Shown: in pieces, positions 10,135-16,069 of the stretch
Layout: every line of letters starts with the position of its first letter
How positions within the stretch are numbered: the stretch's first letter is position 1
NCBI GenBank assembly: GCA_964636085.1
Contig: CAZWPQ010000008.1
Span: 51,146 to 73,669, forward strand
Direction of reading: 5' to 3'
Source of the DNA: an uncultured Nitrososphaerota archaeon
GTDB lineage: Archaea; Asgardarchaeota; Njordarchaeia; Njordarchaeales; Panguiarchaeaceae
DNA: 22,524 bases
The notes under the pieces: model-generated
The model's input: the letters and a program-made list of their open reading frames with translations, nothing else
Database searches by the model: none
What the model was told of the DNA's origin: nothing
Translations under genes and position numbers: made by a program

Positions 10135-11826
10135 CTAGACCCTTACCTGGATTATTTTATTATTTTCGTTCTTTAGCTGATGCATGTAGAACAATAGTAG
10201 TTCTTTTATTCCGCTTCTAAATACTTTGTTTAGAGTGTGCTCGAGGTTATCCATCGCGACTTTATAGAGCCTTATTTTTTGTCCAAATTTTAGTTTTAGC
10301 CGGGACAGATACTCAATACTACTTTTAACTAGGATACTACGACTAAGCTTCTTATTTGTTAGGCCCATGATTATTATGGGGTATTTATGGCCAGAGTTTT
10401 TCCAATAATCCTTGATCGTTCCTTCGATGAGAACTACATCCTCTAAGCGCGAAAGATCCACTATTATTATTGCGTATCTCGCACCCAAATAATATAGCTT
10501 TCTAAGCCTTTCAAACATGGGGGACATGTCTAGACTCCATATAACATACTGGACAAAGACGGTGCCGAATGGAGCTAGGTTAAAAATATCATAGAACGAG
10601 TAAAAATTCACTCCCACGCCTGATTCCTGTCTCTGTTCACATCTTAGCGACTTGCCCAAGATCCTGTCCTTTATGGGTGAACCCAAGACAATAACTTTTA
10701 TCCTAAATGTATTTAGTTCTCCAAAAATTAGTTCTATTGCTCTCTTGTATACATCTGGATCTATACCAATAAATATTTTCTCCAATAATCTTCCAATAAA
10801 TTCATCGGCCGTACCCCTGAAGATTATACCTAAGGTCTTTATCGCATATCTACGGACATGGTGATTTTTATCGCCAGTAAGCTTCAACAATAGACGTAAT
10901 GTAGAATGGTTTCCACTACTATAGAATACCAAGGATAGTGTCCTGAGAGCCCCTAGCTTGACGAGGTCAGTGTCCTTGATATACCTCCATAATAAATCTA
11001 TTATCCTCGTATCATTTGTCCTCATGTAAATCCATCCAAGTGTCTCTATGGCAAGACATCGTAGATATCGATCTGGAGAGCAGGCTAGAATACTGACATA
11101 TTTTCTTATGGGCATATGCTTTTCATATATTTTGCTCATTCCTCTGAGTGCTATAGAAATTGTTCTGAGCGCGATCTCATGGGTTTTTCTATTTCCAATA
11201 GAAATTATTTCTTTGAGAATCCTTAGAATCCCTGTGGGTCTACCTCTTAATATTTTTCCTAGTGATAAAGAAATTATCGCCCTAGACATTGGATCATCAT
11301 ATCGTGCATATAATAGCAGAAGATTTGCTATATCTATATTTCCCGTATTCTCATATAACAATCCGACGGCTAAAATTGCTGTTTTGAGCAGATCGGGTTC
11401 ACATTGGCTGAGGATTTTAACGATATCATTATAGTTAGCTACATCGTTTCCCTTCCTTCTAAACATTATCCCCAGCAATGCCAATACTTCCTTACGAATC
11501 GATGGGAAGTTCTTATATACATCAACAAGGATTTCAAAGGCATCTGAAGAAGGATTATAGCTGAATACTTTGGCAAGTATATGCAGGGCATCTATAGAAA
11601 GTCTCTCGTTGTATAGAAGAGGCCTAATATATTCATATACTACCTTGGGATACATACTTAGTAATCTATATGCGGCCTCTGGAACCGATACATTTAGACC
11701 AGCACAAAGTTTGGTTGTGACATATCTACCATCACCGATATTTCTGAGCAATGTAGCTATACTATCCTTCATGTATTTCAACGAAGGGGATATACGAGTC
11801 TCGGAGGGTTTTGTATCTCTTGGCAT
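10135..11826 (-). CDS. PC/HEAT-like helical-repeat protein fused to a C-terminal degenerate Rab-like small GTPase domain
   Basis: About 8 repeats of roughly 35 aa, e.g. AILAVGLLYENTGNIDIANLL, AIETLGWIYMRTNDTRIIDLL, ALRTLSLVFYSSGNHSTLRLL, AIKTLGIIFRGTADEFIGRLL. From about residue 374: IKVIVLG...GVGVNF...VIW...FERLRKLYYLGARYAIIIVDLS...PIIIMG, the Rab/Ras-like secondary-structure motif order. Confidence 0.85.
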   Translation of the reverse strand: MPRDTKPSETRISPSLKYMKDSIATLLRNIGDGRYVTTKLCAGLNVSVPEAAYRLLSMYPKVVYEYIRPLLYNERLSIDALHILAKVFSYNPSSDAFEILVDVYKNFPSIRKEVLALLGIMFRRKGNDVANYNDIVKILSQCEPDLLKTAILAVGLLYENTGNIDIANLLLLYARYDDPMSRAIISLSLGKILRGRPTGILRILKEIISIGNRKTHEIALRTISIALRGMSKIYEKHMPIRKYVSILACSPDRYLRCLAIETLGWIYMRTNDTRIIDLLWRYIKDTDLVKLGALRTLSLVFYSSGNHSTLRLLLKLTGDKNHHVRRYAIKTLGIIFRGTADEFIGRLLEKIFIGIDPDVYKRAIELIFGELNTFRIKVIVLGSPIKDRILGKSLRCEQRQESGVGVNFYSFYDIFNLAPFGTVFVQYVIWSLDMSPMFERLRKLYYLGARYAIIIVDLSRLEDVVLIEGTIKDYWKNSGHKYPIIIMGLTNKKLSRSILVKSSIEYLSRLKLKFGQKIRLYKVAMDNLEHTLNKVFRSGIKELLLFYMHQLKNENNKIIQVRV

Positions 11827-11839
11827 TCAGAAAAACCTA

Positions 11840-13306
11840 TCAACCATTTATGTGTGGAGAATGCCCCCTCTTAATTCTTCTTAGATTATCATTTAGGATA
11901 GCATCAGCGATTCGATTAGTGGCACTAATTATCTGCTGGATGTTGTGTGGACTTACGACTATAAAGTCTGTATGATGATCATATATCCTTGCGAGACATA
12001 AGACGAGAAACTTCGCTATATACCCAAGCAGATATGAAAGTTGTGTAGGATACGATTCCAAATAACCGATCAACACTGTTGGTATGGGCAAATAGTAGTG
12101 CGTTACAAAATCGATATATTCTATCGCTCTTGATAAGCTTTTGTACGAGTTCATATCGAATGCTACCCACAGTATTCCTGATCCGCATAGAAATGTCACT
12201 AGAATACTTGGTCTTATTCTAAGGTCGATATTCCATATGCCATAATCAGCCTTCATCACGCCGATATACTCGTCTTTAAGATGACACTTCCACAAGAGAA
12301 AGTCCATAGAACATAATGTTTTGCGGGCCATATTAGCATTCTTAGGACCCCCTCGCTCCTCCAGATCTGCAATTATCTTCTGCTTAACCAGATAGTCGCC
12401 AAGAAAGGCAATCTTAAGGAAAATACGGCCCCCCGGATTTTCTATCATCTGAACAGCGTCAGCCTCACCTAGGGACATCATTTGGTTCATTTTAAATTTC
12501 AGTTTCGTAAGGCTTATAAGTGAGAATAATCCGGATACACCATCAACACCACGATCTAAGAATTCCTTAAATAGTCCTAGTAGACTCCTACAACATGTAG
12601 TTGCATACTCAATCCATGACAACAACAGGCCACTCTTAGCTACTATGTCGAGTAGTTTTGGGCATTTAGACAGCAATAATTCTTCACTGGCACCCTCCAT
12701 ATTCCACATTTTGCCTACAAATGTTAGGAACTCATCTTTTGTTCTACAAATTAACGACAAAGCAACAATACACAGTAACTTTATTAGAGGAGTATTCTCA
12801 TAGAGACCTAGAATTAATCTAATAGTATTCATATTTCCCAATCTCTTAAAGATTTTTGCAATGCTCATAATCGCTACCGATTTTATAACAATATTATCCT
12901 CCTTATTTACAACCCTCCGAATGAAATAAGCACCGATATCTGTGTTTCCAATATCAGAAAATATTTCTACAAGCATATAGAGAATATGATGCCTATGCCG
13001 AGGGCAATCTAGGTATAGGCGCTCAATCACACGGATTATGTCACTATTTTTGGATCTATAGGTCATATAGAATATAGCCAACACATCATTAGCGAGCCTA
13101 GAATCCAGCAATGGTGAGACATAAAAGACAAACCTATCAATATCTCTAGACAAAACATCATAGTTTGCTTTGGGCAAAATAAGAGTCCTGCCCCCCAAAT
13201 TTGCTTCTACATAATCATTGGATCCTATACTACAGAAGAAATCGGATAATGCGTTTATCCACTCCCTATCGAATATCATCAGCTCATCTCGCCTACTGCA
13301 AGACAA
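11840..13306 (-). CDS. Paralogue of 10135..11826: PC/HEAT-like repeats plus degenerate Rab-like domain
   Basis: Aligns by eye with its neighbour (IGSNDYVEANL/IGDGRYVTTKL, YVSPLL-DSRL/YIRPLLYNERL, IFSDIGN/MFRRKGN). C-terminal LKIAFLGD...DF...IWNI...FLCGSGILWVAFDMNSYKSL...IPTVLIG. Start is TTG 13306 or ATG 13279. Confidence 0.8.
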   Translation of the reverse strand: MSCSRRDELMIFDREWINALSDFFCSIGSNDYVEANLGGRTLILPKANYDVLSRDIDRFVFYVSPLLDSRLANDVLAIFYMTYRSKNSDIIRVIERLYLDCPRHRHHILYMLVEIFSDIGNTDIGAYFIRRVVNKEDNIVIKSVAIMSIAKIFKRLGNMNTIRLILGLYENTPLIKLLCIVALSLICRTKDEFLTFVGKMWNMEGASEELLLSKCPKLLDIVAKSGLLLSWIEYATTCCRSLLGLFKEFLDRGVDGVSGLFSLISLTKLKFKMNQMMSLGEADAVQMIENPGGRIFLKIAFLGDYLVKQKIIADLEERGGPKNANMARKTLCSMDFLLWKCHLKDEYIGVMKADYGIWNIDLRIRPSILVTFLCGSGILWVAFDMNSYKSLSRAIEYIDFVTHYYLPIPTVLIGYLESYPTQLSYLLGYIAKFLVLCLARIYDHHTDFIVVSPHNIQQIISATNRIADAILNDNLRRIKRGHSPHING

Positions 13307-13441
13307 TTAATCTGCAGAGGCGATATTTGCCTCCCGCTGGATATCTATTGTGACTTCATCCAATTCGCTTTCGTCTTTGAGATTAAAGATCTTCCTCTTT
13401 TGGATAGCTATCTGAGTTTGTTCATTCTTTTCTGCCGACAT
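13307..13441 (-). CDS. Small 44-aa hypothetical protein with an acidic C-terminal half
   Basis: Below the ORF-track cutoff. MSAEKNEQTQIAIQKRKIFNLKDESELDEVTIDIQREANIASAD*. AGGTG Shine-Dalgarno lies just upstream of ATG 13441, with a TTTAAATA box about 45 nt upstream. The stop directly abuts the next ORF. Confidence 0.65.
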   Translation of the reverse strand: MSAEKNEQTQIAIQKRKIFNLKDESELDEVTIDIQREANIASAD

Positions 13442-14533: not shown

Positions 14534-16069
14534 GTGTTGGGTACGAAATATATATTCGATAGGGAAACAGAGCTTAGAGATTTGGAGAGGTATTATAAGG
14601 ACTGTGTGTCTCTAGGTGCTAATTGTGGTGTTATCGTTTATGGTTGGCGCCGTGTAGGAAAAACAACGATTCTAAAGGAGTTTGTTAGAAAGGTGAATGG
14701 TGTTTATATTAACTGCATTTGGATCAGTGATCCATATGTTTTCTTGAGGCTTGTACTGGACTTCTTGCCTACAGATCTTGTTGGAAAATTTAAAATTTTC
14801 CTTGGAGAAGGAGACCCTATGTTTGTGCTTAGGAAGGCTTTTGATGCTTTGATTTCTTTGGCTGAGAGTACAGGCAAAAGGGCCTTCGTTTTGGATGAGT
14901 TTCATATATTTGTAGAGAAAGTATCAGGACGGATTGCAAGGGAGAAAAAGGCCAAGAAAGAAGTCATCACAGATGATGTTTTAGGCCTCCTAAAAGACAT
15001 CGTTGAGGCAAAGAAAGCATTTTGGATTTTCTCAACTAGCTTGGGTTGGGAGAAGGTAAGAGAAACAATAACGAGACCTAAAAAGGCTGAGAGCCCACTC
15101 ATCGCGGTTTTAAGGAAATACAAGATAGAGCCCTTCGATAAAGAAACCTCTATAAGCTTCATACGAAGTATAAATCCAGAGGTCCCATATGAATACTGCG
15201 AGCTATTGTACAGGCTAAGTGGTGGGATACCTAAAATTTTAGAAATGTTTACTACAAATTATGAGAAGGATAGACCTCTAATCGATCAGGCAATACGATT
15301 CATCGAGAGAGGAGAGCTTGACGATTTCTTCGAAAATGTAGTAAAGTTCATTGCAGAGATATCAAAAAGGGACTACGCCCTACTAACACAAGCGTTAAAG
15401 GCTATAGGCCTAGAGGAGAAAACAACGGATCAAATAGCACAACAGCTAAGAATGGATGTTGACTCCGCATATGTGCTGGTAGAGGAGCTGGTTAAGTGTG
15501 AGATTGTTCAGAAAAGGAAAGTAGGGCGGAGAGTCATTTACAATGTCAAGTACCCTCTCCTACCACTATGGGTAGAACTTAGAGTACCACCAGAAAAAAA
15601 TGTGTATGAAATAATGGCAAGGAAGTTGGGTATAACCTTAGAGAGTTATGTAAAGGAAATTCTAGAAGAATACGTAAAGAGAAACAGTGAGGTACATATT
15701 TGGGAGGATTCCAAAGGAACATTCTTTTATGGAAGCACGAGGGAATTAAAGTTCACGCCAAGAACAGTATTAAGGCCAAAAGATGCTGAGAAAAAGTATC
15801 CTATCAAAAAAGATTTTGACCTACTAGTGATTACTAACGAGAAACCAGTAGTTATCGAGATAAAACTAGATTGGACAGGTCTCAATGAAATGGACATCGA
15901 TAACATACTAGAAGTGGCACATGACCTAGGCGGCATACCAATCATAATAATAGAAAAAGGAGAGCCAAAAATACCACTAATAGCTTATGCGGCGAAGAGG
16001 GGGGTCATACTAATGTCAGGGGAAGCATTAAGACTTATCGCCAAAAAGATAAAATTTGCTCATTGGTAA
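14534..16069 (+). CDS. Archaeal ATPase (ATPase_2/STAND-like) with winged helix and C-terminal PD-(D/E)xK nuclease-like domain
   Basis: FDRETEL, Walker A YGWRRVGKT, Walker B FVLDEFH, SGGIP (GxP), HTH TTDQIAQQL...EELVKCEIV, and C-terminal DFDLL...VIEIK. Confidence 0.9.
   Translation: MLGTKYIFDRETELRDLERYYKDCVSLGANCGVIVYGWRRVGKTTILKEFVRKVNGVYINCIWISDPYVFLRLVLDFLPTDLVGKFKIFLGEGDPMFVLRKAFDALISLAESTGKRAFVLDEFHIFVEKVSGRIAREKKAKKEVITDDVLGLLKDIVEAKKAFWIFSTSLGWEKVRETITRPKKAESPLIAVLRKYKIEPFDKETSISFIRSINPEVPYEYCELLYRLSGGIPKILEMFTTNYEKDRPLIDQAIRFIERGELDDFFENVVKFIAEISKRDYALLTQALKAIGLEEKTTDQIAQQLRMDVDSAYVLVEELVKCEIVQKRKVGRRVIYNVKYPLLPLWVELRVPPEKNVYEIMARKLGITLESYVKEILEEYVKRNSEVHIWEDSKGTFFYGSTRELKFTPRTVLRPKDAEKKYPIKKDFDLLVITNEKPVVIEIKLDWTGLNEMDIDNILEVAHDLGGIPIIIIEKGEPKIPLIAYAAKRGVILMSGEALRLIAKKIKFAHW

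Follow-up and report, generated by a model that had tools for sequence, protein, structure and literature searches.

PseudoGTPases are an accepted class of proteins in eukaryotes and in bacteria, and those of class i keep the small-GTPase fold, have G motifs that are degenerate, do not bind or hydrolyse nucleotide, and act as binding or scaffold modules (PMC12490416, PMC5593906, PMC10211241). The pseudoGTPase domain (psGD) of AAGAB, for example, binds the AP1 and AP2 sigma subunits (PMC12490416), and CENP-M is a kinetochore scaffold (PMC10211241). In Asgard archaea, expansions of Rab/Ras/Arf-like GTPases are studied as forerunners of the eukaryotic trafficking switches, and the Rab of Thorarchaeota (Thor-Rab) binds both GDP and GTP and hydrolyses GTP (PMC10933270). 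Here we analysed a 22,524-nucleotide stretch of archaeal DNA (hereafter the window; assembly GCA_964636085.1, contig CAZWPQ010000008.1, positions 51,146 to 73,669), taken from contig C8 of a metagenome-assembled genome with a size of 2.4 Mb and a completeness of 83%. We found that two tandem minus-strand genes of the window, encoding the proteins P0001 and P0002, each combine an N-terminal HEAT/PC-repeat solenoid with a C-terminal domain of the Ras/Rab fold. The reading that we favour, with a probability of roughly 0.78 judged from sequences and structure models, is that the Ras-fold domain following each solenoid is a pseudoGTPase of the class i type, acting as a nucleotide-free docking module.

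The source genome also carries eight stand-alone, intact Ras/Rab-family genes of about 200 amino acids (aa) each, which is consistent with an Asgard archaeon, and alignment with these paralogs provided the controls for the motif analysis. All eight read GD(G/x)xVGKT[ST], T-I/V-G-A/V-D, DL(A/S)GQ, NKxDL and SAK/SAL. Against this background the two window domains have lost every nucleotide-binding motif, and the claim of the original prediction that G1 is broken and that G3 and G4 are replaced holds for both of them; all the motifs that it quoted are present in the sequence. Where the intact paralogs have GDGGVGKT[ST], P0001 reads GSPI--KD, being two residues short, with the glycine before the lysine gone and the Mg-binding Ser/Thr changed to Asp, and P0002 reads GDYLVKQK. 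The column of the switch-I Thr holds Gly in P0001, and the Thr is not retained in P0002, which aligns there as TL-C. The canonical DLAGQ of G3 has become SLDMS in P0001 and NIDLR in P0002. At G4, GNKxDL of the intact paralogs corresponds to GLTNKK in P0001, where neither register of the alignment supplies the Asp that specifies guanine, and to GYLESY in P0002, in agreement with the LTNKK and YLES segments singled out beforehand. At G5, SAK/SAL is replaced by VAM in P0001 and by SPH in P0002. The GKS within the RILGKS stretch of P0001 was considered as an alternative Walker A motif and rejected, as the structure model puts it at the far, C-terminal end of alpha1.

The models reflect these changes. 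In the AlphaFold2 (AF2) model of P0001, two residues lie between strand beta1 (372-382) and helix alpha1 (385-393), in that of P0002 one residue lies between beta1 (294-303) and alpha1 (305-319), and in both models the P-loop is physically absent. A P-loop NTPase no longer binds GTP once it has lost, together, its anion hole, both Mg ligands, the Gly that senses the gamma-phosphate and the guanine-specifying Asp. From the motif loss together with the models, both domains are predicted to be unable to bind GTP or Mg, and they fall outside the functional Ras family, since its defining motifs are missing from their sequences.

A different reading of the same segments is that the domains bind nucleotide in a non-canonical manner, as class ii or class iii pseudoGTPases or as ATP binders, and would work as slow or locked switches. 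K386 of P0001 does stand in the P-loop Lys column, where the relatives P0003 and P0004 have K-S and K-T, the G1 segment of P0002 is of full length, and GTP is bound by some of the accepted pseudoGTPases, the N-terminal domain of p190RhoGAP being an example (PMC10211241). We nevertheless consider such binding improbable. P0001 lacks two residues of the glycine-rich P-loop, and the P0002 model has a P-loop of a single residue; losses have occurred jointly at the Mg-binding Ser/Thr, at the switch-I Thr, at the Asp and Gly of DxxG, at the Asp of NKxD and at the SAK motif; and no compensating motif was seen.

The C-terminal domain of P0001 is plainly Rab-like, as judged from profile matches and the model. 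It matched the genome's own canonical paralog on contig C24 with an E value of 1.8e-19, and a canonical-only hidden Markov model (HMM), built exclusively from 14 intact GTPases, with an E value of 1.4e-26. Its best sequence match in the PDB was the Thorarchaeota Rab 7ezb (E 3.8e-5), followed by Rab25, Rab11 and Rab5. The P0002 domain still matches as a relative of the Rabs, though far more diverged: it aligned end to end with the canonical-only HMM (p 4e-6) and, by hhalign, over 188 columns with the family profile (91% probability, E 1.1e-6), and a phmmer search of the PDB with P0002 gave no match. P0001 has RabF-like stretches (GVGVNF, YVIW, YYLGA and IIVDLS), and those of P0002 are weak; a C-terminal prenylatable Cys is absent from both proteins, their ends being QVRV and HING. 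The positions first proposed for the two domains were accurate, and correspond to the C-terminal 190 or so residues of each protein from strand beta1 onwards: base 10707 is the first of the P0001 beta1 strand FRIKVIVLG (residues 374-382 of 563), and bases 12424-12427 are the start of IFLKIAFLG in P0002 (residues 295-303 of 488).

A comparison with the Ras (PF00071) and Roc (PF08477) families, proposed as a check, failed at the level of Pfam, with no match at E<=1 by hmmscan for both whole proteins and both C-terminal pieces, and succeeded with the lineage-specific profiles described above. Furthermore, Pfam and NCBIfam scans of both C-terminal domains gave no match, and a PF00071 scan of the whole genome identified 13 places that include neither window gene. 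Routine annotation would therefore miss both domains.

At the level of structure, the Ras/Rab fold appears to be kept in both domains, as had been proposed. The AF2 models have a confidence (pLDDT) of 86.4 for the P0001 domain and 85.8 for the P0002 domain, and both show the Ras order b1-a1-b2-b3-a2-b4-a3-b5-a4-b6-a5. Superposed on Rab23, the P0001 model gave, with VIA-align, a Z score of 20.8 with a root-mean-square deviation (rmsd) of 2.1 A over 163 residues, and the P0002 AF2 model a Z score of 18.5 with an rmsd of 2.2 A, also over 163 residues. The best 50 Foldseek matches of the P0001 domain model in the PDB are all Rabs, with E values of about 1e-10. For P0002, the alignment-free ESM Atlas model of residues 290-480 matched Ras/Arf/Roc clusters with TM scores of 0.64-0.74. 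By the class i criteria of the Stiegler & Boggon scheme, as used in PMC12490416, both window domains have the sequence and fold of that class, namely a GTPase fold with degenerate G motifs, and their nucleotide-free state is predicted.

The N-terminal part of P0001 matched the Pfam family HEAT_2 with 44-47 bits, against a cut-off of 27.7, together with weak matches to PC_rep and Adaptin_N; HEAT_2 was matched by 4 of the 5 members of the solenoid family. Compared with the PDB, the profile of this family found the PC repeats of the proteasome subunit Rpn2/PSMD1 (5.6e-6) and the HEAT protein CAND1. The N-terminal region of P0002 has no Pfam match of its own, and we count it as a HEAT/PC-repeat solenoid only because of its paralogy to that of P0001, to which it is 26% identical over 179 residues (BLASTP, E 5e-9).

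Relatives were collected by an exhaustive HMMER search with the C-terminal domain of P0001 and by genome searches; word-indexed homolog searches with full-length P0001 and P0002 returned only the proteins themselves, and P0001 is a single-member cluster in the protein collection. We examined 14 fused Rab-like domains, five of them on HEAT solenoids and nine on another N-terminal part, referred to here as domain X, and found that G1, G3, G4 and G5 are missing in all 14. The HEAT-fused proteins include P0003, from a metagenome contig, which is 37% identical to P0001, and proteins of 552 and 545 aa in two congeneric genomes. In the X-fused proteins, of about 490-556 aa, the pseudo-Rab domain follows a domain X of about 340 aa. 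A maximum-likelihood tree placed the X-fused domains together with three of the five HEAT-fused ones (support 83/91), and made C24_6959, a canonical paralog, the sister of this group (84/96); its placement of P0002 and of one further copy was not reliable. On the metagenome contig L039, a P0002-like gene is directly followed by the ortholog of P0001, which repeats the arrangement of the window, so the tandem pair predates the source genome.

Degenerate Rab-like domains were also seen in the metagenomic proteins P0029, P0017, P0013, P0020, P0026 and P0011, which include stand-alone forms of about 190 aa, a 408-aa protein with two tandem dead domains and a 2130-aa protein with six matched stretches. 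Judged from these sequences, dead Rab-like domains seem to be common in these archaea.

Domain X has 34 columns that are invariant, and His, Asp, Glu or Cys fill many of these, as in GLDxNYxxFCH, GFDxHxWE, RxQGD and HxEH (examples at L024:1480-2502, L011:355-1398 and L012:5-1045), and looks like a putative enzyme of uncharacterised fold. No Pfam, PADLOC or PDB profile matched it, and its Atlas model is poor (pLDDT 0.39). An assignment to SPFH/Band-7 was not accepted: the feature match of 0.92 covers 151 shared features only and is too weak. The domain was found in 4 of the 5 genomes of the genus, in up to five copies per genome, and was not found in any of the 395 other genomes searched in the phylum. 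Three arrangements are seen: a solo gene, as in the genome of the window (contig C17:20590-21567), a fusion with a dead Rab-like domain, and a gene that lies just upstream of one for HEAT+pseudo-Rab. The last of these occurs at three loci of the congeneric genomes, where the separate domain-X gene is immediately upstream, so that fused and split forms share the order X, HEAT, pseudo-Rab.

Next we considered whether the domains are under constraint or decaying. As the original prediction had argued, the long open frames speak against simple decay: at the stop frequency of the window, the chance of a stop-free frame is about 1e-15 for 563 codons and about 1e-13 for 488 codons, and the degenerate architecture recurs in other genomes and on a metagenome contig. 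In the P0001/P0003 pair, the identity of the Rab-like domain (37.0%) is close to that of the solenoid (37.7%). The closest relatives are 37% (P0001) and 22% (P0002) identical, so synonymous sites are saturated and an estimate of dN/dS is not feasible.

Several observations count against a retained Ras fold under selection. The AF2 alignments of both domains contain real GTPases, which biases the models towards the Ras fold, and the sole model free of this bias, the alignment-free one of P0002 in the ESM Atlas, has a low overall confidence (pLDDT 0.56). In the G011/G012 pair, the Rab-like domain is 20% conserved versus 36% for the solenoid, and constraint on some copies may thus be weak. The ortholog of P0001 on L039 (936-2647; contig ERZ27245482 k141_908111, an ENA metagenome) is split by a single frameshift near L039:1155-1175, with homology continuing in both frames, which may be an assembly error or a recent inactivation. 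Finally, P0002 and the G012 homolog (G012_C41) sit on very long branches, of 4.2 and 2.9 changes per site.

The low Rab-like identity in the G011/G012 pair, the frameshift and the long branches would also fit C-terminal domains, that of P0002 above all, that are neutral relics, with selection acting on the solenoid part only; besides itself, P0002 has no detectable homolog in a collection of 5.8 billion proteins. We regard this as very unlikely. Stops would be expected to appear quickly in a drifting tail, yet every copy seen has some 190 open codons, and the hydrophobic pattern of the core and the order of secondary structure suffice for confident Ras-fold models and for the alignment-free ESM match. 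Both domains are, moreover, equally conserved between P0001 and P0003, and two different fusion architectures have the pseudo-Rab domain in common. We take these observations to mean that fold and surface are under a constraint that is relaxed but real, and weakest for P0002.

The family is confined to one genus, is present in multiple copies and diverges rapidly, a pattern that could also point to a conflict system, in defence or in a mobile element, in which the dead Rab would be a decoy or a sensor for factors targeting the host's Rab-like GTPases or their regulators. One homolog adjoins a Schlafen/AlbA_2 gene, and in the window an ATPase_2 protein with a PADLOC match is encoded 1.2 kb upstream of the pair. 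However, P0001 and P0002 have no PADLOC match, nor has domain X, the marks of mobile elements, such as an integrase or repeats, were not seen, and the neighbours of the paralogous loci are ordinary and varied (cation efflux, ATP-cone, TldD, a Na/H exchanger and an Ig-domain surface protein), with no common theme found among these neighbourhoods. We accordingly give a conflict system little credence.

The positions of the two genes and their parts are collected in the table. The short spacer between the genes (13 nt) suggests that P0001 and P0002 are expressed as a single transcription unit. A 44-codon open reading frame (ORF) rich in Glu, Lys and Gln (13307-13441, minus strand) ends with its stop abutting the TTG start of P0002, and lies outside the region homologous to the N-termini of the family. 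The pair has flanking genes of a typically archaeal kind, for geranylgeranyl reductase, an ATPase_2 protein, aconitase and PEP mutase. The ATPase_2 protein, an ORC/Cdc6-like AAA protein of 511 aa (14534-16069, plus strand), is encoded upstream of P0002 and in the divergent direction; its PADLOC match is to the candidate system PDC-S27 (E 1.5e-8), and it has a weak Csa3-like stretch. In the congeneric genome that carries it, the Schlafen/AlbA_2 gene (L011:3333-4031) lies directly downstream of a HEAT+pseudo-Rab gene. An intact Rab-like GTPase gene (C8:50143-50664, PF00071 E 7.6e-31) is found on the same contig as the window, about 480 bp before its start and about 10 kb from both pseudo-Rab genes.

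Table. Positions in the window of the two solenoid–Rab genes, their domains and the remnants of their G motifs.
Feature	Position	Strand	Basis
Gene 1: P0001, 563 aa, solenoid and predicted pseudo-Rab domain	10135..11826	-	ORF and translation
P0001 HEAT/PC-repeat alpha-solenoid, residues 1-364	10735..11826	-	Pfam HEAT_2
P0001 predicted Rab-fold pseudoGTPase domain, residues 372-563 and stop	10135..10713	-	profiles and AF2 model
P0001 G1 remnant GSPIKDR	10663..10683	-	aligns to GDGGVGKTS with a 2-residue gap
P0001 G3 remnant WSLDMS (canonical WDLAGQ)	10522..10539	-	alignment with intact paralogs
P0001 beta5 and G4 remnant IIIMGLTNKKL (canonical LVGNKxDL)	10345..10377	-	alignment
P0001 G5 remnant YKVAMDN (canonical ETSAK/ETSAL)	10246..10266	-	alignment
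Spacer of 13 nt, gene 2 stop to gene 1 ATG	11827..11839	-	sequence read
Gene 2: P0002, 488 aa from TTG	11840..13306	-	ORF; form in the protein collection 479 aa, ATG at 13279
P0002 solenoid-like N-terminal region, paralogous to that of P0001	12455..13306	-	BLASTP
P0002 predicted Rab-fold pseudoGTPase domain, residues 294-488 and stop, very diverged	11840..12427	-	HMM, hhalign, models
P0002 G1 remnant GDYLVKQK	12377..12400	-	alignment; full length, without glycines or GK[ST]
P0002 G3 remnant WNIDLR	12218..12235	-	alignment with intact paralogs
P0002 beta5 and G4 position TVLIGYLESY	12050..12079	-	alignment; no NKxD
P0002 G5 position IVVSPHN	11942..11962	-	alignment

Under the class i hypothesis, the ancestor of these domains would be a canonical Rab-like GTPase of the same lineage, of which C24:6959-7471 is the nearest intact paralog. 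After fusion to other modules, the nucleotide pocket would have been dismantled, leaving a P-loop that is shorter or is taken up by a longer alpha1, and other residues in place of the switch-I Thr, of DxxGQ, of NKxD and of SAK. The hydrophobic core and the switch-II/alpha2 stretch (R..YYxGA) are retained, suggesting that the domain now presents one fixed surface, and this could serve the constitutive protein-protein docking of the solenoid, or of domain X in the sister proteins, to a common partner. When intact and dead members are compared, conservation is highest in the columns of beta1, of switch-II/alpha2 (R..YY) and before beta5, a pattern that fits a retained alpha2 surface and could equally be structural. 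The role of interaction module put forward in the original prediction fits the pattern of fusions; its further options of a GTPase mimic, a decoy or a dimerisation domain are not distinguished. The recurrent link between the two suggests that domain X is a partner of the pseudo-Rab domain; a complex prediction for the genome's own domain X and the Rab-like domain of P0001, run without controls, scored 0.00 and speaks neither for nor against this.

Collectively, these results describe one lineage in which a Rab-like paralog appears to have been repeatedly fused and stripped of its nucleotide pocket, with eight paralogs left intact. If the fused domains are nucleotide-free, they offer small, expressible models for the change from switch to scaffold and a means of identifying what Asgard Rab-like proteins bind to; the numbers given for Asgard 'GTPases' would then include dead members and need care.

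In the literature that we searched, we found no description of archaeal pseudoGTPases, or of HEAT and Rab-like fusions in Asgard archaea. The Asgard Rab-like GTPases, represented by Thor-Rab (PDB 7ezb/7ezd/7eze; PMC10933270), have the same fold and the same switch-II/alpha2 signature YYxGA as the window domains. Thor-Rab, however, is a stand-alone protein of about 180 aa, whereas the window domains are without G1, G3, G4 and G5 and are fused to a solenoid of about 290-370 aa. ROCO proteins such as LRRK2 and Methanosarcina barkeri Roco2 likewise have a Ras-like domain within a multidomain protein with repeat solenoids, and the Roc domain of LRRK2 and M. barkeri Roco2 are among the structural matches, with Z scores of 13.5-14.6. 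Yet Roc is an active GTPase, and the window domains are closer to the Rabs (Z 20.8 vs 14.6). Furthermore, no COR domain follows the G-like domain, where about 10-20 residues remain after alpha5 with no COR or Roc match in Pfam, so the window proteins are not ROCO proteins.

The likeness to the eukaryotic class i pseudoGTPases (CENP-M, the N-terminal psGD of AAGAB, and pG1/pG2 of p190RhoGAP) is that the fold is kept and the G motifs are degenerate. In contrast to these, the window domains are archaeal, are covalently fused to the C-terminus of a solenoid (or of domain X), come from a lineage-specific Rab-like paralog with no detectable sequence relationship to the eukaryotic domains, and are nucleotide-free by prediction. 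CENP-M works with the HEAT-like CENP-I, and AAGAB with adaptor complexes, whose large subunits are alpha-solenoids; both thus pair a dead G domain with a solenoid, which resembles the window proteins. Extending this likeness, we put forward a speculative and rather unlikely scheme in which the dead Rab would be the common adaptor of a genus-specific three-part system made of domain X (a putative enzyme), the HEAT solenoid and the pseudo-Rab domain, the frozen domain joining X with the solenoid, or docking both to regulators (longin, roadblock or TRAPP-like) of the cell's real Rab-like GTPases. If this is true, archaea would have a counterpart of the GTPase-solenoid pairs seen in CENP-M/CENP-I or AAGAB/adaptins, and the use of G domains as pseudoenzyme scaffolds would have begun before eukaryotes or arisen independently.

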